Below the pieces are notes generated by a model. It did not search any database. It had not been told where the DNA came from and saw only the letters and a list, made by a program, of their open reading frames with translations. Positions 7,260 to 30,515 of a DNA stretch of 32,000 nt are shown piece by piece; positions within the stretch are counted from its first letter, which is position 1, and each line of letters starts with the position of its first letter. Both the position numbers and the translations under genes were made by a program. Source of the stretch: Cereibacter sphaeroides 2.4.1 (lineage in GTDB: Bacteria > Pseudomonadota > Alphaproteobacteria > Rhodobacterales > Rhodobacteraceae); assembly GCF_000012905.2 (NCBI RefSeq), contig NC_007488.2, forward strand, positions 82,180 through 114,179, given 5' to 3'.

Positions 7260-7953
7260 GCGGCTGGATGCCTTTTACGGCCAGAGCCACATCCTGCACG
7301 GGATCGACCTGTCGGTGGACGAGGGCCGGCGCACGACCGTGCTGGGCCGCAACGGGGCGGGCAAGTCCACGCTCCTGAAATCCATCACCAATTCCGGGCC
7401 GAAGGTCGAGGGCAGCGTCTCGCTTCAGGGCCGCCCGCTCGGCAGCCGCGCCTGGTTCCGCCGCGCCAAGGACGGCGTGGCCTTCGTGCCCGAGGACCGG
7501 CGCATCTTCACCCACATCACGGTGGAGGAGAATATCGAGCTCGGCCGGTTCGGCGCCACGGCCGCGCGCCCGGTGGTGCCGGCGGCCCAGATCTACGAGT
7601 GGTTCCCCATGCTCGGGCCGCTCCGCGCGCGCCTCGGCGGCCAGCTCAGCGGCGGGCAGCAGCAGATGCTGGCCGTGGCCCGCGCGGTGGCCGCGCGGCC
7701 GCGGCTCCTGCTCCTCGACGAGCCGACCGAGGGGCTCGCCCCCGTCATCGTCGAGGATCTGGCCAAGATCGTGGCCCGGATCTGCGACGAGCTGGGCATC
7801 ACCCTGCTTCTCGTCGAGCAGAACATCTGGTTCGGCCGCCAGACGACCGACCGGGTCTATGTGCTCGACACCGGCTCCGTCGTCTTCTCGGGCTCCTGGG
7901 CCGAGTTCGACCGGGACGAAACCATCCGCAACCGCCATCTGGCGCTTGCCTGA
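7246..7953 (+). CDS. ABC transporter ATP-binding protein, LivF-like
   Basis: Walker A GRNGAGKST, signature LSGGQQQMLAVA, Walker B LLLLDEPTEGLAP. It overlaps the preceding ATPase gene by 14 nt. Confidence 0.9.
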   Translation: MLKVERLDAFYGQSHILHGIDLSVDEGRRTTVLGRNGAGKSTLLKSITNSGPKVEGSVSLQGRPLGSRAWFRRAKDGVAFVPEDRRIFTHITVEENIELGRFGATAARPVVPAAQIYEWFPMLGPLRARLGGQLSGGQQQMLAVARAVAARPRLLLLDEPTEGLAPVIVEDLAKIVARICDELGITLLLVEQNIWFGRQTTDRVYVLDTGSVVFSGSWAEFDRDETIRNRHLALA

Positions 7954-7975
7954 CACATCTCTGGGAGGAGACATC

Positions 7976-8731
7976 ATGACCAGGTTCGAAGGACGGACCG
8001 CGCTCGTCACCGGCGGCGCGAACGGGATCGGCCGTGCCAGCGCGATCGCATTCGCCGAGCAGGGCGCCCGCGTGGGCATCCTCGACATCGAGGAGGGCCC
8101 GCTGGCCGAGACCGCCGAGGCGATCCGCGCCAAGGGCGGGCGCGTGGTGACCGTCGTCACCGACATGCGCGACCGCGCAGCCGTCAAGGCCGCCATCGGT
8201 CAGGTCGAGGCCGAACTCGGGCCGATCGACCTCCTCCTCAACAACGTGGGTCAGACCGCGCGCAAGAATGCCTCGGAATTCCTCGATTCCGTGCCCGAGA
8301 CCTGGGACTTCGTGGTGGATCTGAACCTCATGGTGACCTTCTACGTCACCTGGACGGTCGCCAAGGGCATGAAGGAGCGCGGCTTCGGCCGCATCGTGAA
8401 CATCTCGTCGGATTCGACCCTCGTGGGCGAGCGCAGCATCGTCGACTATGTCGCGGCGAAATCGGGCGTCTCGGGCTTCACCCGCGGGCTTGCGCGCGAA
8501 CTCGCGCCCTTCGGCATCACCGTGAATGCGGTCGCCCCCGGCGTGACCAACACCCGCGGCCCGAAGCAGCTGCCGAAGGAAGTCTACGATGCGGCGCTGG
8601 CCGAGATCCCGCTCGGCCATCTGGCCGAGCCCGAGGATATCGCCAATGCGATCACCTTCCTCGCCAGCCAGGAGGCGCGCTGCATCACCGGACAGATGCT
8701 GACCGTCAACGGCGGCCGGATCTTCTACTGA
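7976..8731 (+). CDS. Short-chain dehydrogenase/reductase (FabG-like SDR)
   Basis: The internal ATG at 7976 is preceded by GGGAGGAG. Motifs: TALVTGGANGIGRA, LLNNVG, YVAAKSG. The upstream part of track ORF 7859.. lies over the end of the LivF-like gene. Confidence 0.9.
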   Translation: MTRFEGRTALVTGGANGIGRASAIAFAEQGARVGILDIEEGPLAETAEAIRAKGGRVVTVVTDMRDRAAVKAAIGQVEAELGPIDLLLNNVGQTARKNASEFLDSVPETWDFVVDLNLMVTFYVTWTVAKGMKERGFGRIVNISSDSTLVGERSIVDYVAAKSGVSGFTRGLARELAPFGITVNAVAPGVTNTRGPKQLPKEVYDAALAEIPLGHLAEPEDIANAITFLASQEARCITGQMLTVNGGRIFY

Positions 8732-8741
8732 GGGGCGCGAG

Positions 8742-9542
8742 ATGCTGCACAATACCGGAAGCCACTGGATCTATTACGACCTGATCGGCGCGCCCGACGC
8801 GCCGGTCGTCTGCATGAGCCACTCGCTGACCTCGGACCACGGCATGTGGGCCGAGCAGGTGCCCGCCTTGCTCGAGGCCGGGTTCCAGGTGCTCAGGATC
8901 GACACCCGCGGCCACGGCGGCAGCAGCGCCCCGCCCGGCGACTACCGGATCGAGGAACTGGCCGGCGACGTGCTCTCGGTGCTCGACGCGCTCGGGTTCG
9001 AGAGCGGCGTCCACATGATCGGCCTGTCGATGGGCGGCATGATCGGGCAGGTGATCGCGGCCGACCATCCCGGCCGGCTCGCCTCGCTCATGGTCTGCTG
9101 CTCGGCCTCGAAATGGATGGGCGACACCGAGCTGATGAAGGGGCGCATCCGCGCGGTGAAGGAGTCCGGCACGCTCGAGAGCATCGTCGCGGCCAACATG
9201 GAACGCCGCTACGGCCCGGGCTTCCGCGAGCGGCGCCCGCTCCGGTGGGAGGCGCTGCGCCAGACCTTCCTCGGCACCAAGCTCGACGGCTATTTCGGCT
9301 GCATGAACGCCTGCCTCACCCACAATGTCGAGCCGCGCCTCGGGCAGATCGACATTCCGGTGCTGGTGGTGGCGGGCTCCGAGGATCCGACCACGCCGCC
9401 GGCCGACAACCGGCTGATCGCCTCCTGCATCCCCGGCGCGCGCTACGCGGAGATCGCGGGCGGCTATCACTTCCCGAACGTCGAATTCGACGGCGAATTC
9501 AACCGGATCATGCTGGACTGGCTGAAGGAACGGCGCGGCTGA
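8742..9542 (+). CDS. Alpha/beta-fold hydrolase (3-oxoadipate enol-lactonase-like)
   Basis: 266 aa. Motifs: RIDTRGHGGS and the nucleophile elbow GLSMGG. The C-terminal GGYHFPNVE carries the His. Confidence 0.85.
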   Translation: MLHNTGSHWIYYDLIGAPDAPVVCMSHSLTSDHGMWAEQVPALLEAGFQVLRIDTRGHGGSSAPPGDYRIEELAGDVLSVLDALGFESGVHMIGLSMGGMIGQVIAADHPGRLASLMVCCSASKWMGDTELMKGRIRAVKESGTLESIVAANMERRYGPGFRERRPLRWEALRQTFLGTKLDGYFGCMNACLTHNVEPRLGQIDIPVLVVAGSEDPTTPPADNRLIASCIPGARYAEIAGGYHFPNVEFDGEFNRIMLDWLKERRG

Positions 9543-14140: not shown

Positions 14141-15154
14141 TCAGTAGGCCACGCGCTTGTAGTAGCGCCGCGTGACCAGCGGGTGGTCGCGCATCACTTC
14201 GAGATGGGCGCTCAGACGCTCCATCAGCGTGGCCATCACGGCGGGCGAGATCATCGCGCGCAGCTCGGGCGAGAGCGTCTGCGGGCAGTAGTCGGCGGTC
14301 GAGATCACCGTCAGCCGGTCGGTATATTGCCGCGCGAACTGCGCCACGCGCTCGGCCAGCGGGTCGTAGGCATCCTCGCCGCGGAACAGCACGAGGCTCA
14401 CCCCCGGCTCGATCAGTTCGAGCGGGCCGTGGAAGAAGTCCGACGCATGGACGGGCCGGGTGCGGATCCACTGCATCTCCTCGAGGATGCAGGTCGCGTA
14501 ATAGAGCGCCTCGGGCCACATGTTCCCCGCGCCGGTGAACATGTGATAGTCGGCGCCCGCGATGAGGCGCGCATGATCCTCGGCCTTGGGTTCGAAGGCC
14601 TTCTTGGCCGCGACCAGCGCCGCGGGCACGGTCTGAAGCTCGGCCACCAGCGCATCGTAAGTGTCGATCTCGCCGCGGGCCTTCATGACCGACAGGGCGA
14701 TGAGCAGCGACTGGAGGTAGAAGCTCTCGGACGAGGTGTCATCCTCGGCGAAGTTCACCAGCGCCGGGTTGCCGCCGAGGCCGAGCGGCGTGTCGGCATG
14801 GCCCACCAGCGTGATGATCTTGGCGCCCACTTCCTTCAGCTTCTCGAGCATGGCCACGCTCTCCTTCGTGGCGCCCGAGAGCGAGGGCATCACCACGATG
14901 GACTTGTCGGTGAGATTGGCCGAACCGGTCAGGATCAGCTCCGCCGGATAGTCCTTGAAGGTCGGGAAGCCCGAACGGCGGTGCAGCAGCTGGACGGCGG
15001 GCTCCATCAGATAGGCCACGCCCCCGGTCCCGAGGAAATAGAGGTTGGTCGCGCCCGCCGCGATGGCCGCGCCGATCTCGGCGTCGATCCGGGGCGCGAG
15101 CGCCACGGCGCCCGACTGGATGCGGAGGAAGCGGTCCTCGTTGAAATTCAGCAT
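14141..15154 (-). CDS. Two-SIS-domain protein, fructosamine-6-phosphate deglycase (FrlB/FraB)-like, phosphosugar-binding motif intact
   Basis: 337 aa. FLGTGGVAYL and VVMPSLSGATKES match the SxSGxT phosphate loop known from the GlmS SQSGET motif. The second half has TGAGNMWPEALY and VHASDFFHGPLELIEPG. AAGAGGA Shine-Dalgarno lies before the ATG. Confidence 0.8.
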   Translation of the reverse strand: MLNFNEDRFLRIQSGAVALAPRIDAEIGAAIAAGATNLYFLGTGGVAYLMEPAVQLLHRRSGFPTFKDYPAELILTGSANLTDKSIVVMPSLSGATKESVAMLEKLKEVGAKIITLVGHADTPLGLGGNPALVNFAEDDTSSESFYLQSLLIALSVMKARGEIDTYDALVAELQTVPAALVAAKKAFEPKAEDHARLIAGADYHMFTGAGNMWPEALYYATCILEEMQWIRTRPVHASDFFHGPLELIEPGVSLVLFRGEDAYDPLAERVAQFARQYTDRLTVISTADYCPQTLSPELRAMISPAVMATLMERLSAHLEVMRDHPLVTRRYYKRVAY

Positions 15155-15246
15155 GTCTGATCCTCTTGGTTTCGCCCCGGAGGGCAGGTGTTCGGGGCCC
15201 GGCCGCGGGCTGCGGCAGGGGACAGGAAAGGGAAGGGGCGGCGCGG

Positions 15247-16746
15247 TCAGGCGGTGAGCTCTGCCACGCGGGAGGCCAGCCGCTCGGAGGCCGCCTCGAG
15301 CGCTGCCGACCGCCGGGTCCTCAGCCCGGCATCCGCGGCAAGGCGGGCCTCCATCTCGGCGAGAAGGGCCGAGACCACCTCGGGCGCGGTGCCGCCCGGC
15401 ACGGTGCGCGCCCGCACCGCCTCGACCGGATCCATCCAGCGCCTGAGCCGCTCTTCGGGCAGATCGAAGCTGCGGCCGATCTCGGCTTCGGCCGCCTCGT
15501 TCAGCACCGCGACCGTCAGCTCCTCGGCGCCGCCGCCCGCGGCCAGCACCATCTGCACCGCGCGCCCCACCACATGATGGGCGTCGCGGAACGAGATGCC
15601 GAAATCGCGCACGAGCCCGTCGGCGAGATCCGTCGCGGTCGAGAAATTGGCCTTGCAGCGCGCCAGCAGCTTTTCGGCATCCGGCGTGGCCGTCTCGAAG
15701 ATCAGCCGCAGCAGCGAGAGGCCCGCCTCGAACCGGGCGAAGGCGGGCCAGGCGTCGGCCACCCCCTCGCGCACGCTGTCGAGCCCGATGGAATAGTTCG
15801 ACCCCTTCACCGCCGCGAGAGCGCCCGCCAGCGCCCCGATGCTGCGCCCGGCCTCGGCCCGAAAATATTCGAGCGGCAGCATGTTCTTCTTCTGCGGCAT
15901 GATCGAGGACGTGCCCGCCACCCGGTCGGGGAAGGTCAGCGCGCCGAACTCCCAGGTGGTGAAGACATAGAGATCCTGCGCCACGCGCGAGAACAGCACC
16001 TGCGCGCTGGTGACGGCCCAGAGAAGCTCGGTCACGAAATCGCGCGAGGCCACGGCATCGAGCCCCGGTGCGGCCGGTCCGGCAAAGCCCAGAAGGTCCG
16101 CCGTCTCGTCGCGGTTGATGGCAAAGGAGGTGCCGGCCAGCGCCGCCGACCCGAGCGGGCAGGCGTCGAGCCGGTCGAGCACCGCCGCGAGCCGCTCATG
16201 CTCGCGCTCCATCCCGCGGGCGACGTTGGCGAGATAATAGCCGAAGGTGATGGGCTGCGCGGGCTGGAGGTGGGTGTAGCCCGGCATCACGGTCAGCACA
16301 TGGCGCCCGGCCGCCGCGAGACAGGCGCGGCGGGCCTCTTCCATCGCGGCCAGAAGCGCAAGGCAGGTCTCGCGCGCGGCCATCCGGTCGAGGGTCGAGC
16401 CGATGTCGTTGCGGCTGCGCCCGACATGGAGCCAGCCCGCCACCGCCTTGCCCGCCACCTGCCCGAGCCGGTTCTCGAAGGCGAAATAGCTGTCCTCGAA
16501 CTGCGGATCGAGGTCGATGGCGGCGGGGCCCTCGGCGCGGATCTGCGCGATGCCGCGCAGGATGTCGCGCGCGCAATCGGCCGGGATCAGCCCGCGGGCG
16601 GCCAGCATCGCGGCATGGGCCTCGTTCAGCGCGCACATCCGCTCCAGCGCCGGGGCGTCGAAGCCCTGCATCGGCGGCTCGTAGATGGTGCGGGCCACCT
16701 CGGCCGCGGTGCGTTCCGTCAGGCGGGAGCTCACGGAGTTCTTCAT
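15247..16746 (-). CDS. Argininosuccinate-lyase-family (aspartase/fumarase superfamily) C-N lyase, probably not housekeeping ArgH
   Basis: 499 aa. All three conserved superfamily regions are present: VGRSRNDIGSTL, GYTHLQPAQPITFG and the signature loop GTSSIMPQKKN. It is embedded in an amino-acid ABC importer operon. Confidence 0.85.
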   Translation of the reverse strand: MKNSVSSRLTERTAAEVARTIYEPPMQGFDAPALERMCALNEAHAAMLAARGLIPADCARDILRGIAQIRAEGPAAIDLDPQFEDSYFAFENRLGQVAGKAVAGWLHVGRSRNDIGSTLDRMAARETCLALLAAMEEARRACLAAAGRHVLTVMPGYTHLQPAQPITFGYYLANVARGMEREHERLAAVLDRLDACPLGSAALAGTSFAINRDETADLLGFAGPAAPGLDAVASRDFVTELLWAVTSAQVLFSRVAQDLYVFTTWEFGALTFPDRVAGTSSIMPQKKNMLPLEYFRAEAGRSIGALAGALAAVKGSNYSIGLDSVREGVADAWPAFARFEAGLSLLRLIFETATPDAEKLLARCKANFSTATDLADGLVRDFGISFRDAHHVVGRAVQMVLAAGGGAEELTVAVLNEAAEAEIGRSFDLPEERLRRWMDPVEAVRARTVPGGTAPEVVSALLAEMEARLAADAGLRTRRSAALEAASERLASRVAELTA

Positions 16747-16973
16747 CTGGGATCTTTCCGGTCGGTGAGGGCCAGGGGCAGGGCATCGCGCAAGGCCCCG
16801 GCGGAGGGGAAATCGGTGGGCGAGAGGCGCCGCGGCCCGAGCGCGCGGGCCTCGGCGGGCGTGACGCGGACGCGGGCCATCAGGGCGCGGATCTCCGGAT
16901 CGCGCGGGCGGCCCGCATCGAAGGGCGCGGCGCAGAGCGCCGGAAGGGCCGAGAGAGAGGCGGGCGCCTCCAT
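16743..16973 (-). CDS. Small hypothetical protein (76 aa), translationally coupled between the permease and the lyase
   Basis: The ATG at 16973 lies 3 nt after the permease stop (16976), and its TGA overlaps the lyase ATG (ATGA at 16743-16746). Most third codon positions are G/C, as in neighbouring genes. I recognise no family. Confidence 0.45.
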   Translation of the reverse strand: MEAPASLSALPALCAAPFDAGRPRDPEIRALMARVRVTPAEARALGPRRLSPTDFPSAGALRDALPLALTDRKDPR

Positions 16974-16975
16974 CC

Positions 16976-17707
16976 TCAGGTCCTCACCGAGAGGGCGGCG
17001 TCGATCTCATGCGCCCGGTCCTCGGCCTGCGCCCCGCTCGCGGCGGAATAGGGCTTCAGGAAATGGCGCTCGATGCGCCCGCCCACCAGCGAGATCAGGG
17101 TGCAGAGGGTGAAATAGACCACGAGGATCGAACCGTAGACGAGATAGGCCGGGCTGCCGCCCTGCATGATGGTCGTCTGCTCGATCAGCACCTGGCCCGT
17201 GCGCAGCAGTTCCTGCGCCCCCACCACCGCGCCGAGCGACGTGGCCTGCACGAGCGCGGTCAGAAGCCCCACATAGGGCGGCACGATCACCGGCATCGCC
17301 TGCGGCAGCGTCACGAGGAGGAGCGTCTTCACCGGGCCGAAGCCGAAGGCCGCCGCCGTCTCGCGCTGGCCCCGGCCCACGGAGGCGAGCCCCGCGCGCA
17401 GGATCTGCGCCCCGTTGGCGCCGCCCCAGACCGAGATCGCGAGGCAGCAGGACCAGAACGGATTGAGCCCGAGCCCCGTCATGGGCAGCATGAAATAGAC
17501 GAGCAGCACCGTCACCATCAGCGGCAGGTCGCGCAGCAGCTCGACCAGCGCATAGCTCGCGCGGTTCAGAAGCCGCGGTTTGGCCGTGATGCCCATGGTG
17601 AGGAGGATGGCGCAGAAGGTGCCGCCCATCGCCACGACCGCCGACATCTTCAGCGTCTCGATCAGTCCGCCGAGCAGGAAGACGCGATATTCGTAAAGCA
17701 GGTCCAT
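16976..17707 (-). CDS. Polar amino-acid ABC transporter permease (HisM/GlnP-like)
   Basis: 243 aa, multi-span. It has the EAA-like loop ILRAGLASVGRGQRETAAAFGFG. Confidence 0.85.
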   Translation of the reverse strand: MDLLYEYRVFLLGGLIETLKMSAVVAMGGTFCAILLTMGITAKPRLLNRASYALVELLRDLPLMVTVLLVYFMLPMTGLGLNPFWSCCLAISVWGGANGAQILRAGLASVGRGQRETAAAFGFGPVKTLLLVTLPQAMPVIVPPYVGLLTALVQATSLGAVVGAQELLRTGQVLIEQTTIMQGGSPAYLVYGSILVVYFTLCTLISLVGGRIERHFLKPYSAASGAQAEDRAHEIDAALSVRT

Positions 17708-17711
17708 GGGA

Positions 17712-18380
17712 TCACCGTGACCCGTAGGGCCGGTTGAGGCGCCGTTCCAGCCGGTGCCCCAGCGCCGAGACGCCGAGGATGACGACGAGGTAGATGACGC
17801 AGATCGAGAGGAACATCTCGGTCGAGCGGAAGTCCTGCGCGATCCGGTCGACCGCGACGAAGGTCAGCTCCACGAGGCCGATGGCCTGCAGATAGGCCGA
17901 GTTCTTGATCGTGCCGACCACCGTGTTCAGCGTGGAGGGCAGGGCCGACCGCAGCGCGATGGGCGCCACCACGAGGAGCGCGTGCGGCAGCCGGCGCAGG
18001 CCCAGCGAGGCCGAGGCGTCGTGCATCTCGCGCCCGACCGAGGCCAGACCTGCGCGGAAGCTCTCGATATGGAAGGCGCTGGCCCAGATCGTGAGGGCGA
18101 GCACCCCCGACCAGAAGATCGAGAGCGTGAGCCCGAGGCTCGGCAGGCCGTAGAAGACGAAGAAGATCTGCACGAGATAGGGCGTGCCGCGGATGAACTC
18201 GACATAGCCGCGCACGGCATAGGAGAGCGGGCGGATGCCCGAGACGCGCAGCGCGCAGCCGGCCAGCCCCAGAAGGAGCGAGAAGAGGATCGCGAGCAGG
18301 CTGACCATGAGGGTCATGCCGAGGCCGCGCATGAGGTCGGGGAAGGCCGCGAGGATATAGCCCCAGTCGATGACGGTCAT
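17712..18380 (-). CDS. Polar amino-acid ABC transporter permease (HisQ/GlnP-like)
   Basis: 222 aa, multi-span. It has the EAA-like loop FRAGLASVGREMHDASASLGL. Confidence 0.85.
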   Translation of the reverse strand: MTVIDWGYILAAFPDLMRGLGMTLMVSLLAILFSLLLGLAGCALRVSGIRPLSYAVRGYVEFIRGTPYLVQIFFVFYGLPSLGLTLSIFWSGVLALTIWASAFHIESFRAGLASVGREMHDASASLGLRRLPHALLVVAPIALRSALPSTLNTVVGTIKNSAYLQAIGLVELTFVAVDRIAQDFRSTEMFLSICVIYLVVILGVSALGHRLERRLNRPYGSR

Positions 18381-18440: not shown

Positions 18441-19283
18441 TCAGATCTGCGGCGGCTCTTCGAGGAAGCCGCGCTTCATCACATCGACCACGGCCGGTTC
18501 CTCGACGAACTGCGGGATCACCGTCTCGTAGAAATCGCCCTTGCGCAGCTCGTCGAGCACCGCGTTGACGAAGGTCTGAAGCTCGGTCTCGCCCTTGCGC
18601 ATCCCCACGCCGTTCACGCCGAGGTCGAGCCCTTCCTCGATCACGCGGAGCTTGGGATAGTTGCCGCCGAGCGTGTAGATCAGCCCGCCGTCGCCCACGA
18701 ACCCGTCGGCCCGGCCCTGCATCAGCGCCTGCACCCCGTCGGCGGTGGTGTTGAGCTGCACGATCGAGATGTCGGGGATGTTGGCTTCGAGCCACTTGAT
18801 CTGCGTGGCGCCCTTGACCACCAGCACCGAGCGGCCCTGAAGGTCCGAGAGCTTCTGCACCGGGCTGTCGGCCGGCACCAGCACGTTCGAGGTGCCCCAG
18901 AAATAGATGTTGGAATAGTCGATCACCTCCTGCCGCGCGGCCGTCCGGCCCAGCGTGGCGATGATCAGATCGAGCTTGCCGGCATTCAGCGACGAGATGC
19001 GCGCCTCGCTGGTGACGCAGGAAAGCTCCGCGCCCTCCTCCGAGCCGAAGGCATAGTCGCCGATCTTCCTGGCCATCTCGACCTCGATGCCGCGCGGCTT
19101 GCCGTCGGGGCCGGAGGCGCCGAAGGGCGGGCTGTCGCATTTCACGCCGATGCGGATCTTGCCCGCCTTCTGGATCGCCTCGGGCAGGGGCGGCATGTCC
19201 TGCGCCACGGCGGCGGAGGCGGCCGAGAGCACGAGCGCCCCCGACAGAAGGAGGGAGGCGAGGCGGGTGCCGATCTTGGGCAT
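18441..19283 (-). CDS. Polar amino-acid/opine-type ABC transporter substrate-binding protein (family 3 SBP)
   Basis: In-frame ATG at 19283 within track ORF 18441..20048. The signal peptide is MPKIGTRLASLLLSGALVLSAASAAVAQD. KIRIGVKCDSPPFG and LDLIIATLGRT are typical of HisJ/GlnH-like SBPs. Confidence 0.85.
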   Translation of the reverse strand: MPKIGTRLASLLLSGALVLSAASAAVAQDMPPLPEAIQKAGKIRIGVKCDSPPFGASGPDGKPRGIEVEMARKIGDYAFGSEEGAELSCVTSEARISSLNAGKLDLIIATLGRTAARQEVIDYSNIYFWGTSNVLVPADSPVQKLSDLQGRSVLVVKGATQIKWLEANIPDISIVQLNTTADGVQALMQGRADGFVGDGGLIYTLGGNYPKLRVIEEGLDLGVNGVGMRKGETELQTFVNAVLDELRKGDFYETVIPQFVEEPAVVDVMKRGFLEEPPQI

Positions 19284-19348: not shown

Positions 19349-20101
19349 TCAGTGCAGGATCTGACTGAGGAACAGCCGCGAGCGTTCCTCCTGAGGGTTC
19401 GAGAAGAAGTCTTCGGGCGCCGCGCTCTCGACGATGCGGCCGCGGTCCATGAAGATCACGCGGTCGGCCACCTGACGGGCGAAGCCCATCTCGTGGGTCA
19501 CGCAGATCATGGTCATGCCCTCCTCGGCGAGCGAGACCATCGTGTCGAGCACCTCGCGCACCAGTTCGGGATCGAGCGCCGAGGTCGGCTCGTCGAACAG
19601 CATGATCTCGGGCTCCATGCAGAGCGAGCGCGCGATGGCCACCCGCTGCTGCTGGCCGCCCGAGAGCTGGCCCGGATATTTCCGCGCCTGATCGGGGATG
19701 CGCACCCGCTCGAGATAGCGCATGGCCCGCGCCTCGGCCTCGGCCCGCGGCGTGCCCCGCACCCAGCGCTGCGCGAGGGTGCAGTTCTCGAGGATCGTCA
19801 GATGCGGGTAGAGGTTGAAGTTCTGGAACACCATGCCCACGCGGCGGCGAACCTGCTCGATGTTGCGGCGCTGGTCGTTCACCTCGACCCCGCCCACGCG
19901 GATGGTGCCCGCCTGATGTTCCTCGAGCCGGTTGATGCAGCGGATCATGGTGGATTTGCCCGAACCCGAAGGCCCGCAGACCACGATCTTCTCGCCGGGC
20001 GCGACGGAGAAGGTCACATCCTGCAGCACATGCATCTGGCCGTACCACTTGTTGACACGGTCGAAGGCAATGCCCTGCTCCGCTGCGCCTGTCCCGTCCA
20101 T
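19349..20101 (-). CDS. Polar amino-acid ABC transporter ATP-binding protein (GlnQ/HisP-like)
   Basis: Walker [10 protein letters not shown], signature [15 protein letters not shown], Walker [14 protein letters not shown]-loop CVTHEMGFA. Confidence 0.9.
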
Positions 20102-20135: not shown

Positions 20136-20150
20136 ACTTGTCTGACAAGT
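20136..20150. promoter_or_regulatory. Perfect 7-1-7 palindrome, candidate GntR/HutC-type operator in the divergent promoter region
   Basis: ACTTGTC-T-GACAAGT lies 35 nt upstream of the ATPase start (20101). HutC-type operators are typically short GT..AC-containing dyads. Confidence 0.45.
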
Positions 20151-20255: not shown

Positions 20256-20266
20256 CTTGTCAGACA
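20256..20266. promoter_or_regulatory. Second, shorter copy of the TGTC-N-GACA dyad
   Basis: CTTGTCAGACA contains the TGTC-A-GACA dyad and shares CTTGTC with the 20136 site. It lies ~55 nt upstream of the preferred asparaginase start. Confidence 0.3.
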
Positions 20267-20319
20267 TCATGAAGCAGCCTGACTCGCGCCCCCGTGGCGC
20301 CGGGCGGAAGGAGGAGGAG

Positions 20320-21318
20320 ATGAGCCGGCAGGAAGCGCCCCGCCCGAAGGTGGCGGTGATCGCGGGAGGCGGGACGCTGACCGCCCTCGCCTCCGATCCG
20401 TTCGAGATCTGCGACTACGGGCAGGCGGGCAGCCTGACCGCGGCCGACCTCATCGACCGCTGCGCGGCGATGGCCGACCGGGTGGCGCTGGTGCCGCTCG
20501 CCTTCGAACCGCGGCCGAGCTTCGACATGGGCCCCGACCAGTGGGGCGCGATCTGCGGCCTCTGCGCGGCGGCGCTGGCCGAGGATCCGGGGCTTGCGGG
20601 CTTCGTGCTCACCCACGGGACCGGCTCGCTGGAGGAGGCGGCCTTCTTCCTCTCGCTCGTCTGGGACCTGCCGGTGCCGCTCGTGGTGACGGGCGCGCAG
20701 CGGCCCGCCTCCGCCCTCTCCAGCGACGGCTACATGAACCTCTTTCAGGCGGCGCTGGTCGCCGCCCACCCGCAGGCGCGGGCCGAGGGCGTGCTCGTCG
20801 TCGCGCATGGCGAGATCCATCTGCCCTTCGAGGTGACGAAGACGGCGACCTTCGGCCTCGACACGTTCCGCTCGCCCGATCTGGGGCCGGTGGGCCTCGT
20901 CATCGGCGGGCAGGTGCGCTTCCTGCGCCCCGCCGCTCCCCGCGCGCCGCGGGCGGACTGGCGCGTCCTCGGCGCGTTGCCGCGGGTCGATATCCTCTAT
21001 TGCCACAGCGGCGGCGACGCCTGCGCCATCGAGGCCTTCATTGCCGCGGGGGCGCGGGGCCTCGTGGTGGCGGGCTTCGCGCCCGGCTATGCCACGGGCG
21101 CGCAGGCCCGGCGGCTCGAGACATGGGTGCGCGAGGAGGGCGGGGTGGTCGTCATGGCCTCGCGCGGCCACGGGCCCGTGGTGGCCAACAGCCGCAACGA
21201 CGGCCACGGCTTCCTGCCCGCGGGCCGCGCCGCGCCGGTGAAGGCGCGGCTTCTGCTGCAACTCGCGCTGGCCGCCGGACGCGCGCCGGCGCAGATTGCA
21301 CGGGATTTCGAGTTCTAG
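20320..21318 (+). CDS. Type II L-asparaginase/glutaminase-family protein without a signal peptide, variant active-site motif (HGTGS)
   Basis: ATG 20320 is preceded by GGAGGAGGAG. The protein aligns by eye along its length to E. coli AnsB: VAVIAGGGT, GFVLTHGTGSLEEAAFFL, VTGAQRPASALSSDG, EVTKTATF, and a C-terminal KARLLLQLAL. The track start at 20257 is a TTG and was not preferred. Confidence 0.8.
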   Translation: MSRQEAPRPKVAVIAGGGTLTALASDPFEICDYGQAGSLTAADLIDRCAAMADRVALVPLAFEPRPSFDMGPDQWGAICGLCAAALAEDPGLAGFVLTHGTGSLEEAAFFLSLVWDLPVPLVVTGAQRPASALSSDGYMNLFQAALVAAHPQARAEGVLVVAHGEIHLPFEVTKTATFGLDTFRSPDLGPVGLVIGGQVRFLRPAAPRAPRADWRVLGALPRVDILYCHSGGDACAIEAFIAAGARGLVVAGFAPGYATGAQARRLETWVREEGGVVVMASRGHGPVVANSRNDGHGFLPAGRAAPVKARLLLQLALAAGRAPAQIARDFEF

Positions 21319-21339: not shown

Positions 21340-22065
21340 ATGGAGAAACCGCGGGAAAGCAATGTCGAGCGATTGCGCACGGGCATCCTCGAGATGATCG
21401 AGGAGCTGGGCCTCGGCTTCGGAGACCGGCTGCCGACCGAGAAGGAGATGGTCGAGCGCTTCCAGATCTCGCGCCCCACGCTGCGCGAGGCGCTGAAGCT
21501 GCTGGAGCAGGAGGCGGTGATCGACAGCCATCAGGGCAAGGGCCGGTTCCTCGCCGCGGGCGCGCTCCTCAGCATCGCGCGGCCGATCACCAAGTTCGAG
21601 AGCGTCTCGCAGATGGTGAGCAGCCACGGCTACACGGCCGAGACGCGGCTTCTGGGCTTCTCGGCCGTGCCCGCCGATGCCGTCACGGCCGAGCGGCTGG
21701 CCGTGGCCGAGGGCACGCCCCTCGTCCGCGTCGAGCGGCTGCGCAGCTCGGGCGGCCAGCCGCTGGTCTATTCCGTGGACTGGCTGCCCCGCGCGCTCTT
21801 GGGCGACGGGCTCGAGGGCACGCCGGACTGGAGCGGCTCGCTCGTGGCGCTCCTCGACCGGGTGGGGCGGCGGCCCGTGGCCTCGACCGCGAACGTGCGC
21901 GCCGTCCTTCTGCCCGACGAGGTGAGCGGGCTGCACGGGCTCGAGGAGTTCGGCCCGGCGCTGCTCATCGAGGAGGTCTGCTACGCGGCCTGCGGCACGC
22001 GCGTGATCTATGCGATGGACTATCACCGGGGCTCGGCCTTCTCCTTCAGCTTCGTGCGGAAGTGA
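21340..22065 (+). CDS. GntR-family regulator, HutC subfamily (UTRA effector domain), FrlR/FraR-like
   Basis: 241 aa. The wHTH is LPTEKEMVERFQISRPTLREALKLLEQEAVI. The C-terminal half follows the UTRA pattern (TRLLGFSAVPADAVTAERLAVAEGTPLVRVERLR). Confidence 0.85.
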   Translation: MEKPRESNVERLRTGILEMIEELGLGFGDRLPTEKEMVERFQISRPTLREALKLLEQEAVIDSHQGKGRFLAAGALLSIARPITKFESVSQMVSSHGYTAETRLLGFSAVPADAVTAERLAVAEGTPLVRVERLRSSGGQPLVYSVDWLPRALLGDGLEGTPDWSGSLVALLDRVGRRPVASTANVRAVLLPDEVSGLHGLEEFGPALLIEEVCYAACGTRVIYAMDYHRGSAFSFSFVRK

Positions 22066-23167
22066 CCTCCGGCAGGGCGGCCTCGGGGCGCAGGCTGCGC
22101 TCGTCCTCCCCGAAGAGGTGCAGGCTCTGGACATCGGCCGTGAGCGCGATGGGGGCGCCGGCCTGCAGGTCGAGAACGCCCGGCAGCTTCGCGATCAGCG
22201 GCTCGGCCAGCCCGCGCGCCTCGATATAGGTGAGCTGCACCTCGCCCAGCTGCTCGATGTAGGAGATCCGCCCTTCGAGGAGCGGCGCGCCCTCGGCCAG
22301 CCGCAGGTCCTCGGGGCGGATGCCCACCTGCACCGTCCGGCCCGCAAGGCCCGCGTCGAGCGGGAAGGGCGCCCGCAGCCCGCCGCCGGTGGCGAGGTCG
22401 AGCCGCGCGCCCTCGGGCCCGATCCGCACCGTGCCCGGGATCACGTTCATCGCAGGCGAGCCGATGAAGCGCGCGACGAAGAGGTTGGCAGGCCGCCGGT
22501 AGAGATCGAGCGGCGAGCCCACCTGCTCGATCCGCCCCGCCCGCAGCACCACGATCCGGTCGGCCAGCGTCATGGCCTCGACCTGATCGTGGGTCACATA
22601 GATCATCGTGGCCCCCGGCATCGCCTGCTTGAGCTTGGCGATCTCGATCCGCGTCGCCACCCGGAGCGCGGCATCGAGGTTCGAGAGCGGCTCGTCGAAC
22701 AGGAACACCTTGGGGTCGCGCACGATGGCCCGCCCGATGGCCACCCGCTGGCGCTGCCCGCCCGAGAGCGCGCGGGGATAGCGGTCGAGATAGGGGGCGA
22801 GCTGCAGCACCTCGGCCGCGCGGGTGACGCGGCGGGCGATCTCGTCCTTCTTCAGGCCCGCGATCCGCATCCCGAAGGCCATGTTCTCGAACACCGTCAT
22901 GTGCGGATAGAGCGCGTAGGACTGGAACACCATGGCGATGCCGCGGCGCGAGGGGGCCACCTCGTTCATCCGCTCGCCGTCGATGGCGAATTCGCCCGAG
23001 CTGATGTCCTCGAGCCCCGCGATGGCGCGCAGAAGCGTGGATTTCCCGCATCCCGAGGGGCCCACGAAGACGACGAACGAGCCCGAGGGGATGTCGAGGT
23101 CGATCCCGTGCAGGACTTCCATCGAGCCATAGGTCTTGCGCACCTGGCGCAGCGTCAGTTCGGCCAT
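22046..23167 (-). CDS. Sugar ABC transporter ATP-binding protein (MalK/UgpC/MsmX-like)
   Basis: In-frame ATG at 23167 within track ORF 22046..23380. Walker A GPSGCGKST, signature LSGGQRQRVAIGRAI, Walker B VFLFDEPLSNLD, and a C-terminal regulatory/TOBE-like extension. The 3' end overlaps the convergent GntR gene by 20 nt. Confidence 0.9.
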   Translation of the reverse strand: MAELTLRQVRKTYGSMEVLHGIDLDIPSGSFVVFVGPSGCGKSTLLRAIAGLEDISSGEFAIDGERMNEVAPSRRGIAMVFQSYALYPHMTVFENMAFGMRIAGLKKDEIARRVTRAAEVLQLAPYLDRYPRALSGGQRQRVAIGRAIVRDPKVFLFDEPLSNLDAALRVATRIEIAKLKQAMPGATMIYVTHDQVEAMTLADRIVVLRAGRIEQVGSPLDLYRRPANLFVARFIGSPAMNVIPGTVRIGPEGARLDLATGGGLRAPFPLDAGLAGRTVQVGIRPEDLRLAEGAPLLEGRISYIEQLGEVQLTYIEARGLAEPLIAKLPGVLDLQAGAPIALTADVQSLHLFGEDERSLRPEAALPEVTSARS

Positions 23168-23225
23168 CGGCCTGCCCTTCCCTTGTCTGTCCGGCCCGAG
23201 GGCGCGGTGGCACCGTTCATGGCCG

Positions 23226-24638
23226 TCACCGGCCGGGCGTGAGCGACGAGAGCCAGCGCACCAGCGGGCCCGGGCTCCGGTTCTCGATCTCGAGGTCGTT
23301 GCGGATGCGGATGGCGCGGCGCACGAGGCGCGCGCCCAGCGTGCGCACCGGCTCCGGCGGCAGCGTCTGGCGGCGCGCAAGACCCACGAGGCCGCTCCGG
23401 CTCCAGCGGTCGTCCTGCCCGAGCACGAGGCTTGCGAGGATCCGGCCCGCGACCGGCGTCTGGGCGATGCCGGTGCCGTTGAAGCCCACGCCGAACAGGA
23501 TGTCGGGCTCGCCCGTGAGCGAGCCGAAGACGGGCAGATGCGCGGCCGAACAGTCGATGGGGCCGGACCAGTCGGCCGCGATCTTCACGCCCCGCAGTTC
23601 GGGATAGACGCGGGAGAGCTCGCGCAGATTGTCGGCGCCGCCGTCCGGCCGGCGGTTGAAGGCCGCGCCGAAGCGGTTGCCGTAGGCCACATTCCCGCTG
23701 CCGCGCCCGAAGACCACGCGCCCGCCCCTGGTGCGCTGGTAATAGAGCACATGGGCCTGCGCGTCGCAGATCGACTCGCCGCCCGTCCAGCCCAGCCGGT
23801 CGAGCGTCTCGGCCACCGGCTCGGTCGCGACGATCTGGCTGTCCACCACATAGAGGTAGCGGGAGAGCTCGGGCAGCGCCGCGGCCCAGGCGTTCGAGGC
23901 GATCACCACCTTGCCCGCCTGAAGCGTGCCGCCCGGCGTCTGCAGCCGGCAGGGCCTGCCCGACACGATCTCGGACACGGGGCTCCGCTCGTGAATCGCG
24001 ACGCCCCGCGACAGCGCCAGCGCCCGCAGCCCGAGGGCGAGCTTCGCGGGCTGCACCGTGCCCGCGCGCGGCTCGACCACGCCCATGTAGGAGGCGCCCG
24101 AGCCGGTGCGGCGGCGGATCTCCTCCGCGCCCACGGGCCGCAGCCGGTCGGCCTCGCCCGCCTTGCGGCAAAGATCGGCGGCGGGCTCCCACGCGCCTTC
24201 CTGCGCCCGCGCGCTGGCCGTCCAGAGCCAGCCGTCGAGCCGCAGGTCCATGTCGATCGTGCCCGAGGCCTGCAGCTCCGCCAGCTCCTCGATGGCCTCG
24301 GCGGTGGCATGGCAGAGCGCCAGCGCCTCCTCGGCGCCGACGAGGCGGGTCAGCAGGTCGAGCTCCGCGAACCAGCTGTGGACCTGCCCGCCGTTCCGCC
24401 CCGAGGCGCCCGAGCCGCAGAAATCGGCCTCGAGGATCGTCACGCGCAGCTCGGGCGCCTGCTCCTTCAGGCGCAGCGCCGTCCAGAGGCCGGTGTAACC
24501 GCCGCCGACGATGGCCACGTCGCAGGCGGCCTCGCCCGCGAAGGGCGGCGTCGCGGGGCCTGCGCCCAGATCGCGGAGCCAGAAGGAGCGGTCGCCCTCG
24601 GGCGCCGCGGCGGGAAGTGCCAGCCTGTAGGACGCCAT
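23226..24638 (-). CDS. FAD-dependent oxidoreductase (DAO family; PuuB/OrdL- or opine/amadoriase-like amine oxidoreductase)
   Basis: 470 aa. DVAIVGGGYTGLWTAL is the dinucleotide-binding motif, followed by ILEADFCGSGASGRNGG. The start lies 2 nt after the kinase stop. Confidence 0.8.
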   Translation of the reverse strand: MASYRLALPAAAPEGDRSFWLRDLGAGPATPPFAGEAACDVAIVGGGYTGLWTALRLKEQAPELRVTILEADFCGSGASGRNGGQVHSWFAELDLLTRLVGAEEALALCHATAEAIEELAELQASGTIDMDLRLDGWLWTASARAQEGAWEPAADLCRKAGEADRLRPVGAEEIRRRTGSGASYMGVVEPRAGTVQPAKLALGLRALALSRGVAIHERSPVSEIVSGRPCRLQTPGGTLQAGKVVIASNAWAAALPELSRYLYVVDSQIVATEPVAETLDRLGWTGGESICDAQAHVLYYQRTRGGRVVFGRGSGNVAYGNRFGAAFNRRPDGGADNLRELSRVYPELRGVKIAADWSGPIDCSAAHLPVFGSLTGEPDILFGVGFNGTGIAQTPVAGRILASLVLGQDDRWSRSGLVGLARRQTLPPEPVRTLGARLVRRAIRIRNDLEIENRSPGPLVRWLSSLTPGR

Positions 24639-24639
24639 C

Positions 24640-25497
24640 TCAGACCTCTCCCGCCGCGATCACCTCGGCATATTTGTCCAGGAGCCACGAGGGGATCGGC
24701 AGCAGCGGCTGCGGAAAGCCGCCCTCGTGCAGGCAGGTGTTGGTGGCCGCATCCGCCGCCCCGCGCAGGGCCTCGGCATCGGCGCGGCGCTCGATGGCCC
24801 AGAGCGCGATGAAGCGCGCGATGAAGCTGTCGCCCGCGCCGCAGGTGTCCACCACCTCGACCCGCCGCGCGCGAACGGGCGTGACGGTGCCGCCCGCCTC
24901 GAGGAAGGCACCGCGGCTGCCGCAGGTCACGACGGTGGCCTGCGCGCCGCGCTCGCGGAAGCGGGCGAGCAGCGGCTCGACCCGCTCGGACGGATCCTCG
25001 GGCCCCGAGGCGAAGACGAGCGGCACGCCCTCGAGATCGAGGAGATCGTGATGCGTCGAGACATCGACCGAAAAGCGCGCGCCGTCGCGGACGAGGGCGC
25101 GCACCAGTTCGGGTGCGCTGTGGGTGCCCAGATGCACCCAGTCGGCGGCCCGCAGCGCCGCGTAACGCGCGCCCTCGGGCACATAGCCCAGCCCCACGCC
25201 CAGATCCTCGAGCAGGAAGCGCCGGTCGCCGTCGCGTTCGAGGAGAAGCGTGACGGCGGTGCTGCCCGGGCGCACCTCGCAATCGTCGGGATCGAGCCCC
25301 GCGCGGCAGAGGGCGGTGCGGACCACATCGCCCTCGGGGTCGGGGCCGACAAGGCCGAAGTAGCGCGTCTTCAGGCCCGCGCGCATCCATTGCACCGCCA
25401 CGTTGAGGGCATTGCCCCCCACCGCCATGCGGTCCTTCGACAGATAGACATCGAGACAATTGTCGCCCACGGCGATCAGGGTCGGGCTGCGGCTCAT
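24640..25497 (-). CDS. PfkB-family ketoamine kinase, fructoselysine 6-kinase (FrlD)-like
   Basis: In-frame ATG at 25497 overlaps the upstream stop (ATGA). IAVGDNCLDVY and GGNALNVAV closely resemble E. coli FrlD (IGDNCVDIY, GGNAVNVAV, recalled from memory). DTCGAGDSFIA is the PfkB signature. Confidence 0.85.
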   Translation of the reverse strand: MSRSPTLIAVGDNCLDVYLSKDRMAVGGNALNVAVQWMRAGLKTRYFGLVGPDPEGDVVRTALCRAGLDPDDCEVRPGSTAVTLLLERDGDRRFLLEDLGVGLGYVPEGARYAALRAADWVHLGTHSAPELVRALVRDGARFSVDVSTHHDLLDLEGVPLVFASGPEDPSERVEPLLARFRERGAQATVVTCGSRGAFLEAGGTVTPVRARRVEVVDTCGAGDSFIARFIALWAIERRADAEALRGAADAATNTCLHEGGFPQPLLPIPSWLLDKYAEVIAAGEV

Positions 25498-26351
25498 GGG
25501 CGGGCCTCCACGGGATCGAGATGCGGCGCGAGCGCCGTGAGATGGCGGGTCCAGGCCGCCACCGGATCGAGGGCATAGGAACCGTCGCCGAAGGGCTCGA
25601 AGGAGAGCGCGCCGCGATAGCCCGCCGCCGCGAGATCGGCGAGGATCCGGGCGAGCGGCAGCGTGCCCTCGCCCCAGACGAGATGGCCCGCCGGGCGGCC
25701 ATCCACGAGATGCACATGGGCGAGCCTGTCGCCGAAGAGGCGCGCGTAATCGGCCACGCTGTCGCCCGCGCAGGCCATGGCGACCGTGTCGAGCACCACA
25801 TCCACCGTGTCCGCGCCCACCATCTCCAGCAGGCGCGCCGTATCGGCGGCGCTGTGGGCGATGTTGCTCTCCACCCGCTGGAGCGGCTCGAGCAGGCAGC
25901 GGAGCCCGAGGCCCGCCGCATGGCCCGCGATCAGGCGCAGCGCCTCGGCCGAGCGGTCCCAGGCGCGCGCGGCGGGCTCGCTCTCGTAGCCGCGGCCGGG
26001 GGTCAGGAACAGGTGCCGCGCGCCCAGCTCGGCCGCGATGTCGGCCGCGCGGCGGAAGCGGTCGATGCTGGCCGCGCGGAAGGCATCGTCGCCCGAGGCG
26101 ATGTTGATCGGATAGACCACCTGCTCGGGCGTGAGGCAGCGCACCGACAGGCCCTCGCCCGACAGCACGCATTTCACCTCCGCCACGTCGCGGTCGGTCG
26201 AGTGGAAGAGGTCGAGATGCGGCGCCACGCCCCAGAGCTCGATCTCGGTGAAGCCGAAGCCGCGCATCCGGCGCGCCACCTCGGCCAGCGGGAAGTGCTG
26301 GAAGGCGAAGTTCGCGCCGATCGACTGGCGGGCGGAGAGACGGGCGCTCAT
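25494..26351 (-). CDS. Xylose-isomerase-like TIM-barrel sugar isomerase/epimerase (FrlC-like family)
   Basis: 285 aa. TEIELWG, ARHLFLTPG, LLEPL and HVHLVD form the usual pattern of metal-binding strands in this fold. The gene is overlapped at both ends by its neighbours (ATGA). Confidence 0.75.
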   Translation of the reverse strand: MSARLSARQSIGANFAFQHFPLAEVARRMRGFGFTEIELWGVAPHLDLFHSTDRDVAEVKCVLSGEGLSVRCLTPEQVVYPINIASGDDAFRAASIDRFRRAADIAAELGARHLFLTPGRGYESEPAARAWDRSAEALRLIAGHAAGLGLRCLLEPLQRVESNIAHSAADTARLLEMVGADTVDVVLDTVAMACAGDSVADYARLFGDRLAHVHLVDGRPAGHLVWGEGTLPLARILADLAAAGYRGALSFEPFGDGSYALDPVAAWTRHLTALAPHLDPVEARP

Positions 26352-29465: not shown

Positions 29466-29510
29466 CTCTCTCTCCTGTTGTCGGGCTTCTTGTTGGTCTT
29501 GGGTTGGGCG

Positions 29511-30449: not shown

Positions 30450-30462
30450 GAGACCGATCTCA
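30449..30462. promoter_or_regulatory. LacI-family-type 14-bp operator (copy 1), overlapping the SIS gene start codon
   Basis: TGAGACCGATCTCA is a dyad centred on CG, with half-sites TGAGACC and TGAGATC (6/7). This is the TG..A.CG.T..CA architecture typical of LacI/GalR operators. Confidence 0.5.
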
Positions 30463-30471
30463 CAGCGAGGC

Positions 30472-30515
30472 AAAAAAGGATCGGTCCGGCCGCCGCAGCG
30501 ACTGAGAGACCGATC
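30472..30515 (-). terminator. Terminator/attenuator-like hairpin plus U6 tract on the minus-strand transcript, between lacI-like gene and catabolic operon
   Basis: On the minus strand GATCGGTC (30515-30508) pairs with GACCGATC (30485-30478), followed by C and TTTTTT (30477-30472). The stem is only 8 bp and the loop is ~22 nt. The arms are copies of the operator core. Confidence 0.3.

Follow-up and report, generated by a model that had tools for sequence, protein, structure and literature searches.

A candidate role for an EDDS-lyase-like C–N lyase in an fra/frl-type cluster on a Cereibacter sphaeroides plasmid

Introduction

The Amadori loci fra of Salmonella (fraR, fraB, fraD, fraA, and fraE) and frl of Escherichia coli are the closest described systems to the gene cluster reported here, which lies in a 32-kb stretch of plasmid pB of Cereibacter sphaeroides 2.4.1 (the window, meaning the whole stretch that was analyzed) and includes RSP_3955, a 499-residue protein of the ArgH family. 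With both loci, the window cluster shares a GntR-type regulator, here a GntR/UTRA protein, and a SIS-domain fructosamine-6-phosphate deglycase; it has an asparaginase in common with fra. The FrlD-like kinase of these loci recurs in relatives of the window cluster, and no PfkB fructosamine 6-kinase was found in the same operon in the window itself. The fra locus reportedly uses a Dcu-type carrier, and FraE is said to be periplasmic, whereas uptake in the window cluster falls to an ATP-binding cassette (ABC) system and the asparaginase lacks a signal peptide. The C–N lyase and the PrpD-like protein of the relatives' clusters have no counterpart in fra or frl.

For these two proteins, the nearest precedents come from chelator degradation. 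Iminodisuccinate (IDS) is a synthetic chelator, and in Agrobacterium tumefaciens BY6, an IDS epimerase is reportedly paired with a stereoselective C–N lyase. In Cereibacter strain KD131 and most relatives of the window cluster, a gene for an MmgE/PrpD protein closest to IDS epimerase lies directly upstream of the gene for an ArgH-family lyase. Next to the window lyase, no intact MmgE/PrpD gene was found, only a 76-residue remnant of the gene that KD131 retains, and the pair in these clusters is embedded in a sugar-amine pathway. The lyase itself most resembles ethylenediamine-N,N'-disuccinate (EDDS) lyase of Chelativorans sp. BNC1 (PDB 6G3D-6G3I and 6RX8), an enzyme that cleaves and forms many N-substituted L-aspartates (PMC6973171). 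Both proteins are about 500 residues long and share the long C-terminal helix, Ser280, the numbering of the SS loop, and a tyrosine in place of the ArgH histidine at position 87. They are, however, only 33% identical; EDDS lyase has T-Q where the plasmid lyase keeps T158-H159, and its context is EDDS degradation rather than an Amadori-type cluster.

Here we propose, with a rough probability of 0.4, that RSP_3955 is an EDDS-lyase-like C–N lyase for N-substituted aspartates and works in an fra/frl-type operon for glycated asparagine or aspartate, the simplest such compound being fructose-asparagine. Full-text literature searches that combined the lyase with PrpD and Amadori terms, or used fructose-aspartate lyase or the locus tags, found no description of a lyase-PrpD-deglycase cluster.

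Results

The plasmid argH gene encodes a paralog outside the arginine pathway

The gene for RSP_3955 carries the label argH in RefSeq. By tblastn, its product is 100% identical to sequences in NZ_CP030274.1 and four further records of about 114 kb, and in a sixth, unannotated record. Its product contains SRND at residue 111, GYTHLQ at residue 156, and GTSSIMPQKKN at residue 278, in agreement with the original prediction, made from the nucleotide sequence, that all catalytic regions of the aspartase/fumarase superfamily are kept; the catalytic set comprises S111-R-N-D, T158-H159, S280-S281, K286, and N288. ArgH (TIGR00838) shares this superfamily branch and the three signature regions, which are common to the whole branch and hence do not discriminate for ArgH membership. 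Overall identity is 37 to 39% to the ArgH proteins of Thermus and Rhodobacteraceae. Against TIGR00838, the argH equivalog hidden Markov model (HMM) with a cutoff of 279.5 bits, the lyase scores 342 bits, EDDS lyase 338, and a 398-residue fragment of a genuine ArgH 536; the tested members of the lyase clade score 342 to 371. Because EDDS lyase, which is not an ArgH, also passes this cutoff, passing means little, and the argH annotation of the plasmid gene is probably an artifact of a lenient threshold.

Genomes were scanned with the family alignment using motifs common to all ArgH proteins (SSIMPQKK and PGYTHLQ). The matches listed were almost only canonical ArgH proteins, 30 to 42% identical, which then served as the ArgH reference set. 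A phylogeny had been proposed in the original prediction. In a neighbor-joining tree of 65 sequences, computed without support values, the lyase family forms a distinct clade outside canonical ArgH. It groups with the noncanonical sequences L001 to L005 and with EDDS lyase, and is separate from the ArgH proteins of bacteria and archaea; ArgH also lacks the extra C-terminal helix of the plasmid lyase. About a dozen residues that are invariant in ArgH (at least 85% conserved among 66 canonical sequences) are replaced in the lyase clade: H to Y87, Q to I115, D to L119, NS to PG227-228, EE to QD257-258, G to T279, PD to ML289-290, P to N317, Y to I320, Q to R326, and D to G328. ArgH invariants outside the fumarate site include, in the numbering of duck delta-2 crystallin, H91, the D of NPD, Y323, and Q328. 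The conserved gene context of the lyase was never one of arginine biosynthesis among the homolog loci examined, and the same holds for its own locus, as had been claimed from the window alone.

Published transposon sequencing (Tn-seq) of strain 2.4.1 identifies the separate argH for which the original prediction had proposed a check. In the supplements to that study, RSP_0726, a chromosomal gene, is the argininosuccinate lyase and is scored essential, although the rule in the metabolic model iRsp1140 had read 'RSP_0726 or RSP_3955'; the plasmid copy does not replace it (PMC5513736). The same tables list RSP_3956 as a 1014-bp 'sugar isomerase (SIS)', a length that matches the SIS gene of the window, and RSP_3955 was therefore taken as the window lyase. 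RSP_3955 was itself called essential in the photosynthetic data set only, and the model rule was altered to 'RSP_0726 and RSP_3955' to fit the Tn-seq results (PMC5513736). That revised rule is probably wrong, since RSP_3955 is an EDDS-lyase-like paralog.

A true second argininosuccinate lyase (ArgH2) inside a catabolic island is, given these data, very improbable. Such an enzyme would account for a TIGR00838 score above the cutoff and the RefSeq label, for the T-H of GYTHLQ that EDDS lyase lacks, and for the isozyme entry in iRsp1140. It would not account for the essentiality of RSP_0726 in the presence of RSP_3955, for the replaced invariants, or for a position outside the ArgH clade and a context never tied to arginine, and the score loses its force when EDDS lyase passes the same cutoff and a real ArgH fragment reaches 536 bits. 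The plasmid lyase is a non-arginine paralog, not an ArgH of the arginine pathway.

Structural comparison with EDDS lyase

We next compared the predicted fold of the lyase with solved structures. The AlphaFold (AF2) model, a monomer, has a predicted local distance difference test score (pLDDT) of 89 and a predicted template modeling score (pTM) of 0.89, with a long C-terminal helix spanning residues 454 to 497. The active-site pocket is built from three subunits of the tetramer. In a Foldseek search, the top four matches are all EDDS lyase structures, aligned over the full length with E values of 3e-31 to 2e-30 and template modeling (TM) scores of 0.86 to 0.87, and the best ArgH match follows behind them (E 1.8e-27). 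The HMMER alignment with EDDS lyase reaches residue 496, and the catalytic loop has the same numbering in both proteins, with S280, S281, K286, N288, and S111-R112-N113 aligned.

In EDDS lyase, Ser280 is the catalytic base, and D290 and Y320 shape the amine pocket (PMC6973171). These two pocket positions are occupied by L/F290 and I320 in the clade of lyases linked to a SIS gene. Judged from the alignment, the substitutions imply a different amine substituent and not lost lyase chemistry, and because all fumarate-binding residues are kept, the lyase looks competent to act on N-substituted aspartates through an amine pocket distinct from that of EDDS lyase.

The lyase is coupled to an FrlB-like deglycase in its close relatives

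To examine the neighborhood of the lyase elsewhere, we searched a metagenome collection with a family-specific DNA pattern, which, among the family loci used to check it, missed only L002, L007, L089, and L090 and matched no canonical argH, and obtained 110 stretches. Synteny was scored by tblastn, the close set being limited to loci outside the window's own plasmid that encode a lyase of 60% or higher identity and retain 1 kb or more of downstream sequence. A SIS gene lies directly 3' of the lyase gene in every one of these loci (11 of 11) and in none of the many loci whose lyases are 41 to 55% identical; no locus with a lyase under about 57% identity has one. The link that the original prediction had drawn between the lyase and the FrlB-like SIS gene is therefore a strict coupling, and it occurs in an fra/frl-like cluster with an asparaginase.

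For the SIS protein, RSP_3956, the best NCBIfam match is fructoselysine-6-phosphate deglycase (FrlB). Among PDB entries, it matches 2a3n over its full length with 203 bits and B. subtilis FrlB (3eua) with 108, and GlmS and NagB-II reach only about 26; these far stronger deglycase matches led us to reject an identity as a glucosamine or NagB-II-type enzyme. We take 2a3n to be Salmonella GfrF, a fructoselysine-6-phosphate deglycase. The gfr functions, with fructoselysine 6-phosphate as the substrate of GfrF, have been described (PMC12675984). Since all of the scores fall under the equivalog cutoffs, RSP_3956 belongs to a distinct subfamily. Its residues E226 and H242 are spaced 16 residues apart.

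The gene complements of the relatives vary around this core. Rhizobium sp. CF080 and Agrobacterium sp. 33MFTa1.1 have genes for an asparaginase, a GntR/UTRA regulator, four ABC components, MmgE/PrpD, the lyase, the SIS protein, and a PfkB kinase. Two further genomes share the Cereibacter-type layout and add the kinase, Roseibium aggregatum without PrpD and Microbulbifer sp. with it. In Agrobacterium vitis, Bradyrhizobium sp. SSUT18, and Rhizobium ruizarguesonis, by contrast with the asparaginase type, the order is DeoR, SDR, lyase, SIS, and PfkB, with PrpD and a sugar-type (SBP_bac_1) ABC system near. An FrlD-like PfkB kinase follows the SIS gene in most relatives (Rhizobium, Agrobacterium, Bradyrhizobium, Roseibium, Microbulbifer, and several metagenome loci), and its best match is fructoselysine 6-kinase. 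The PrpD-lyase-SIS-PfkB quartet thus occurs with two front ends, either an asparaginase and an amino-acid ABC system or an SDR and a sugar-type ABC system, and the recurrence of the same quartet behind different front ends argues that the four enzymes act on one compound.

That compound could be a sugar-bearing N-substituted aspartate other than a simple Amadori product, handled by the same mechanism: an opine-like N-(1-deoxyhexityl or hexosyl)-aspartate or -asparagine, that is, an aspartate or asparagine analog of mannopine, mannopinic acid, or santhopine, or else a Heyns-type adduct. The SDR-type modules of A. vitis, Bradyrhizobium, and R. ruizarguesonis lend themselves to such a reading. 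They are on plasmids and adjoin trb and type IV secretion system (T4SS) genes, and the Bradyrhizobium module also adjoins luxR/luxI-type genes; opine-catabolic genes are commonly found on conjugative plasmids (Ti and opine-catabolic plasmids), and the SDR could oxidize a hexityl form to a ketose, much as MocC acts on mannopine. A D configuration at the carboxyalkyl center, possibly from reductive condensation with oxaloacetate, would also explain the epimerase. We nevertheless consider this substrate unlikely. We know of no such opine; the Cereibacter-type cluster, which includes an asparaginase and whose operon lacks an SDR, is more simply explained by fructose-asparagine; and marine relatives (a TARA scaffold and Roseibium) are unlikely opine consumers.

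More distant lyases have other neighbors. Some adjoin a TctC-type binding protein or opine-oxidase-like flavoproteins (Variovorax), and others sit inside a polar-amino-acid ABC operon. Pectobacterium cacticida and Acerihabitans sp. encode lyases 46 to 47% identical to RSP_3955. Their clusters also contain PrpD, an ABC system of the polar-amino-acid type, an APH-type kinase, and a class III aminotransferase or phospholyase-like enzyme, for which the best models are the fused kinase-aminotransferases PRK06148 and PRK06149, with PbfA weaker (200 bits). Here the lyase is the only enzyme able to split the amine from the succinyl part, which suggests a route in which it frees an amino alcohol that is later phosphorylated and deaminated. 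These gammaproteobacterial clusters parallel the role proposed for the lyase in Cereibacter, in that a kinase and a phospholyase-like enzyme are at hand for the released amine.

The PrpD gene is deleted and the operon lacks a kinase of its own in strain 2.4.1

The 76-residue 'hypothetical protein' encoded between permease 2 and the lyase, which the original prediction overlooked, is a remnant of an MmgE/PrpD gene and not a spacer. It has no Pfam match, but strain KD131 carries an intact 457-residue MmgE/PrpD gene at the same position. BLASTN of the window against the KD131 locus (L086) aligned 17100-16924 with 7501-7677, 16931-16848 with 8630-8714, and 16855-16600 with 8889-9144, placing two deletions in the 2.4.1 gene at L086 positions 7678-8629 (about 950 bp) and 8715-8888 (about 170 bp), together about 1.1 kb. 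At each junction, the flanking segments overlap by 8 bp. The closest solved relative of the KD131 protein is IDS epimerase (2HP0/2HP3), a modest likeness at 140 bits. All characterized MmgE/PrpD enzymes use 2- or 3-substituted succinate backbones, and two of them are epimerases (PMC12290011); an N-substituted aspartate has exactly this type of backbone. PrpD is absent from three otherwise intact clusters: the window, the TARA scaffold L164, and Roseibium L204. Since it is missing from otherwise complete clusters and the lyase never is, PrpD seems to behave as an accessory epimerase and the lyase as obligatory.

No PfkB kinase gene follows the SIS gene in the window operon or on the KD131 plasmid. 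The window does, however, encode a kinase in an adjacent operon, also overlooked at first, and within NCBIfam this protein scores best against fructoselysine 6-kinase (116 bits). With only 37 to 40% identity to the kinases encoded after the SIS gene in related clusters, it is a paralog and not their ortholog, and it may act in trans.

These absences raise the question of whether the operon is decaying and without current function in 2.4.1, which we regard as improbable. Two deletions have removed most of PrpD, and neither Cereibacter plasmid has a PfkB gene after the SIS gene. All other genes are intact and have typical coding G+C at third codon positions (GC3), the lyase gene is 99 to 100% conserved between 2.4.1 and KD131, and clusters elsewhere that are otherwise complete likewise lack PrpD. 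Tn-seq data on the SIS gene further suggest that the pathway is expressed. RSP_3956 received 0 insertions in 1014 bp in the library recovered on lysogeny broth (LB), and the chromosomal FrlB-like gene RSP_1447 received 0.5 in 1005 bp, compared with 16.5 for the kinase gene RSP_1446 and 45 to 80 for the ABC transporter genes beside RSP_1447 in the chromosomal RSP_1441-1447 locus (PMC5513736, Table S1). Phosphorylated fructose-aspartate is toxic in Salmonella fraB mutants (PMC12675984). Loss of the deglycase is apparently harmful here as well, and the missing RSP_3956 insertions, by analogy with fraB toxicity, suggest sugar-phosphate poisoning after deglycase loss, in which case the pathway would be expressed.

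A proposed route for fructose-asparagine

Homologs of FraE, FraR/FrlR, FrlD, and FrlB, joined at some loci by one of FrlC, indicate a glycated asparagine or aspartate as the likely substrate. In the route we favor, the SBP_bac_3 ABC system would import the compound, and the cytoplasmic asparaginase would deamidate it to its N-(1-deoxyfructosyl)aspartate form. The lyase would remove fumarate by anti-elimination with Ser280 as the base, before or after 6-phosphorylation by the FrlD-like kinase, and the FrlB/GfrF-like SIS deglycase would split the remaining fructosamine 6-phosphate into glucose 6-phosphate and ammonia. In clusters that encode it, the IDS-epimerase-like MmgE/PrpD protein would epimerize the aspartyl C-alpha, making the D-epimer cleavable too; in 2.4.1, where that gene is deleted, the neighboring frl-like operon would supply the kinase. 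The net products of the lyase-first route would be glucose 6-phosphate, fumarate, and two ammonia.

The data establish the gene content, the clade of the lyase, its intact catalytic residues, the synteny among relatives, and a separate essential argH. What the substrate is, in which order the steps occur, and whether the lyase acts on glycated aspartate itself instead of a product released from it are matters of inference. A deglycase alone would give glucose 6-phosphate and L-aspartate from fructose-aspartate 6-phosphate, and a dedicated lyase that is never lost therefore argues that it would cut the aspartyl C–N bond itself. We also suggest, slightly more tentatively than the proposal as a whole, that the cluster represents an undescribed Amadori branch in which an ArgH-family lyase yields fumarate and fructosamine 6-phosphate from fructose-aspartate or its 6-phosphate, an FrlB-like deglycase deaminates the latter, and PrpD is a stereochemical helper.

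The route sketched in the original prediction, from fructose-asparagine through fructose-aspartate to fumarate, fits the coupled deglycase and asparaginase; its independence of a kinase does not stand. Because an FrlD-like kinase is next to the SIS gene in most relatives and a paralog lies in the neighboring window operon, the lyase would be an addition to the kinase/deglycase route and not, as had been supposed, an alternative to it. The other substrates then put forward, succinamopine or an aminopolycarboxylate, leave the 100% linkage to the deglycase in the clade unexplained and cannot account for the invariant deglycase and kinase, and we reject them for the SIS-linked lyases; they may fit the distant TctC-linked relatives. 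GlcNAc-asparagine was also rejected: it does not carry its substituent on the alpha-nitrogen of aspartate, and its use would call for an asparaginase of another family.

Several observations weigh against the proposed function. The hydrophobic residues at pocket positions 290 and 320 (L/F and I) are not what would first be expected for a polyhydroxy substituent. Amadori compounds derived from L-asparagine need no epimerase, and fructose-L-asparagine alone leaves the usual presence of PrpD unexplained. The 2.4.1 operon may be partly decayed, given that it encodes no kinase and that PrpD has been lost from it, and the tree that separates the lyase from ArgH lacks support values and includes partial ArgH sequences. 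Finally, SIS proteins 71 to 74% identical to RSP_3956 are also found in clusters that have a kinase and no lyase (L206 and L208), and the deglycase is therefore a generic module that may act directly on a phosphorylated fructosyl amino acid.

These lyase-free clusters fit an order of steps in which the kinase and the SIS deglycase act first and give glucose 6-phosphate and aspartate, as Salmonella FraD and FraB do, with the lyase as an aspartase equivalent that merely clears the liberated L- or D-aspartate and PrpD as a racemase-like helper, for the same net products. The closeness of RSP_3956 to 2a3n and to 3eua, a putative fructose-aminoacid-6-phosphate deglycase, agrees with this order, as do the small, hydrophobic residues of the lyase pocket, the distant relatives whose polar-amino-acid ABC operon encodes no enzyme other than the lyase, and the fact that aspartate itself is a 2-substituted succinate, the backbone of MmgE/PrpD enzymes. 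We nonetheless judge this alternative somewhat unlikely. Use of aspartate does not call for an enzyme of its own, and none is encoded in fra or frl; within the clade, PrpD can be missing but the lyase never is, the opposite of what salvage of D-aspartate would lead one to expect; the gammaproteobacterial clusters need the lyase to split the amine from the succinyl part; and, to our knowledge, no enzyme of the ArgH clade is an aspartase. We therefore retain cleavage of the glycated aspartate by the lyase as the preferred reading.

Operon layout and neighboring genes

The window has a G+C content of 70%. As originally described, the lyase gene follows a polar-amino-acid ABC importer and precedes an intact FrlB-like SIS gene, an order with which the coordinates and the Pfam and NCBIfam assignments agree (Table 1). 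Genes of this minus-strand operon, which runs from the ABC ATPase through SBP_bac_3, two permeases, and the 76-codon open reading frame (ORF) to the lyase and SIS genes, are separated by 2 to 92 bp or overlap by 4 bp. The asparaginase homologue was likewise correctly placed: its gene and that of the GntR/UTRA regulator diverge from the operon across a shared control region of 218 bp.

The SBP_bac_3 protein is 65% identical to its Rhizobium CF080 ortholog and 44% identical to the binding protein of the Pectobacterium cluster. The asparaginase scores 197 bits on TIGR00520, under the cutoff of that model, and its N terminus leads directly into the GGT motif. It is predicted to be cytoplasmic for lack of a signal peptide, and the amide form is therefore probably the compound that is imported. 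The regulator is of the same family type as FrlR and FraR, and it adjoins the asparaginase in relatives too. Only two matches to the palindrome CTTGTCTGACAAG occur in the 32 kb, where 0.16 would be expected by chance, and both are within the divergent intergenic region; in two metagenome loci (L173 and L175), the core TTGTCNGACAA also precedes the gene for the ABC ATPase. The palindrome is thus a candidate, and a likely, operator of the HutC-type regulator.

Table 1. Features of the lyase cluster and the adjacent frl-like operon in the window
Feature	Position	Strand	Basis or remark
FrlB/GfrF-like SIS deglycase, 337 aa, RSP_3956	14141-15154	-	SIS domain; NCBIfam and PDB matches
ArgH-family, EDDS-lyase-like C–N lyase, 499 aa, RSP_3955	15247-16746	-	Pfam Lyase_1 and ASL_C2
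76-aa remnant of MmgE/PrpD (IDS-epimerase-like) gene	16743-16973	-	BLASTN against KD131
ABC permease 2, polar amino acid type	16976-17707	-	BPD_transp_1; HEQRo_perm_3TM
ABC permease 1, polar amino acid type	17712-18380	-	BPD_transp_1; HEQRo_perm_3TM
Periplasmic solute-binding protein with signal peptide	18441-19283	-	SBP_bac_3; best NCBIfam match LAO/octopine-type TIGR01096
ABC ATPase, first gene of operon	19349-20101	-	ABC_tran; GlnQ/EhuA-like
Candidate HutC/GntR operator, perfect 13-bp palindrome CTTGTCTGACAAG	20137-20149		Pattern match
Second copy of CTTGTCTGACAAG, 2 mismatches	20256-20268		Pattern match
Type II-like asparaginase, 332 aa, no signal peptide	20320-21318	+	Asparaginase and Asparaginase_C; start codon per RefSeq
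GntR/UTRA (HutC-type) regulator	21340-22065	+	GntR and UTRA
DAO flavoprotein	23226-24638	-	Second frl-like operon
FrlD-like PfkB kinase	24640-25497	-	PfkB; RefSeq, fructoselysine 6-kinase; adjacent frl-like operon
FrlC-like TIM barrel	25494-26351	-	Second frl-like operon
SIS paralog, annotated hypothetical	29511-30473	-	36-38% identical to FrlB-like SIS deglycases; E...H pair kept
LacI regulator	30578-31642	-	

The kinase belongs to a second frl-like operon on the minus strand (22046-30473), accompanied by a LacI regulator and also carrying an SBP_bac_1 sugar-type ABC system and a UgpC-like ATPase. The SIS paralog encoded in it has no Pfam or NCBIfam match, and its gene separates the LacI regulator gene from the remainder of the operon. 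The DAO flavoprotein is an unexpected partner of the FrlC- and FrlD-like genes; its best model is TIGR03329, 'putative aminophosphonate oxidoreductase', at 418 bits, under the cutoff of 633.

Discussion

The cluster on plasmid pB is best called an Amadori locus of the fra/frl type to which an EDDS-lyase-like enzyme has been added, together with, in most relatives, an IDS-epimerase-like partner. Members of the lyase clade in alpha-, beta-, and gammaproteobacteria have been automatically annotated as argH since the HMM cutoff admits EDDS lyase, and the error has reached a curated metabolic model of Rhodobacter sphaeroides.

If the proposed function is correct, it would constitute a new enzymatic way to dismantle glycated amino acids. 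It would also define a class of natural substrates for EDDS-lyase-like biocatalysts and for IDS-epimerase-like MmgE/PrpD proteins and thereby provide the natural function that the pair of iminodisuccinate epimerase and C–N lyase has long lacked. The substrates fructose-asparagine and fructose-aspartate already exist, as does a simple assay based on absorbance at 240 nm (A240). For the rhizobia and agrobacteria, the same function would explain a catabolic module that travels on their conjugative plasmids.

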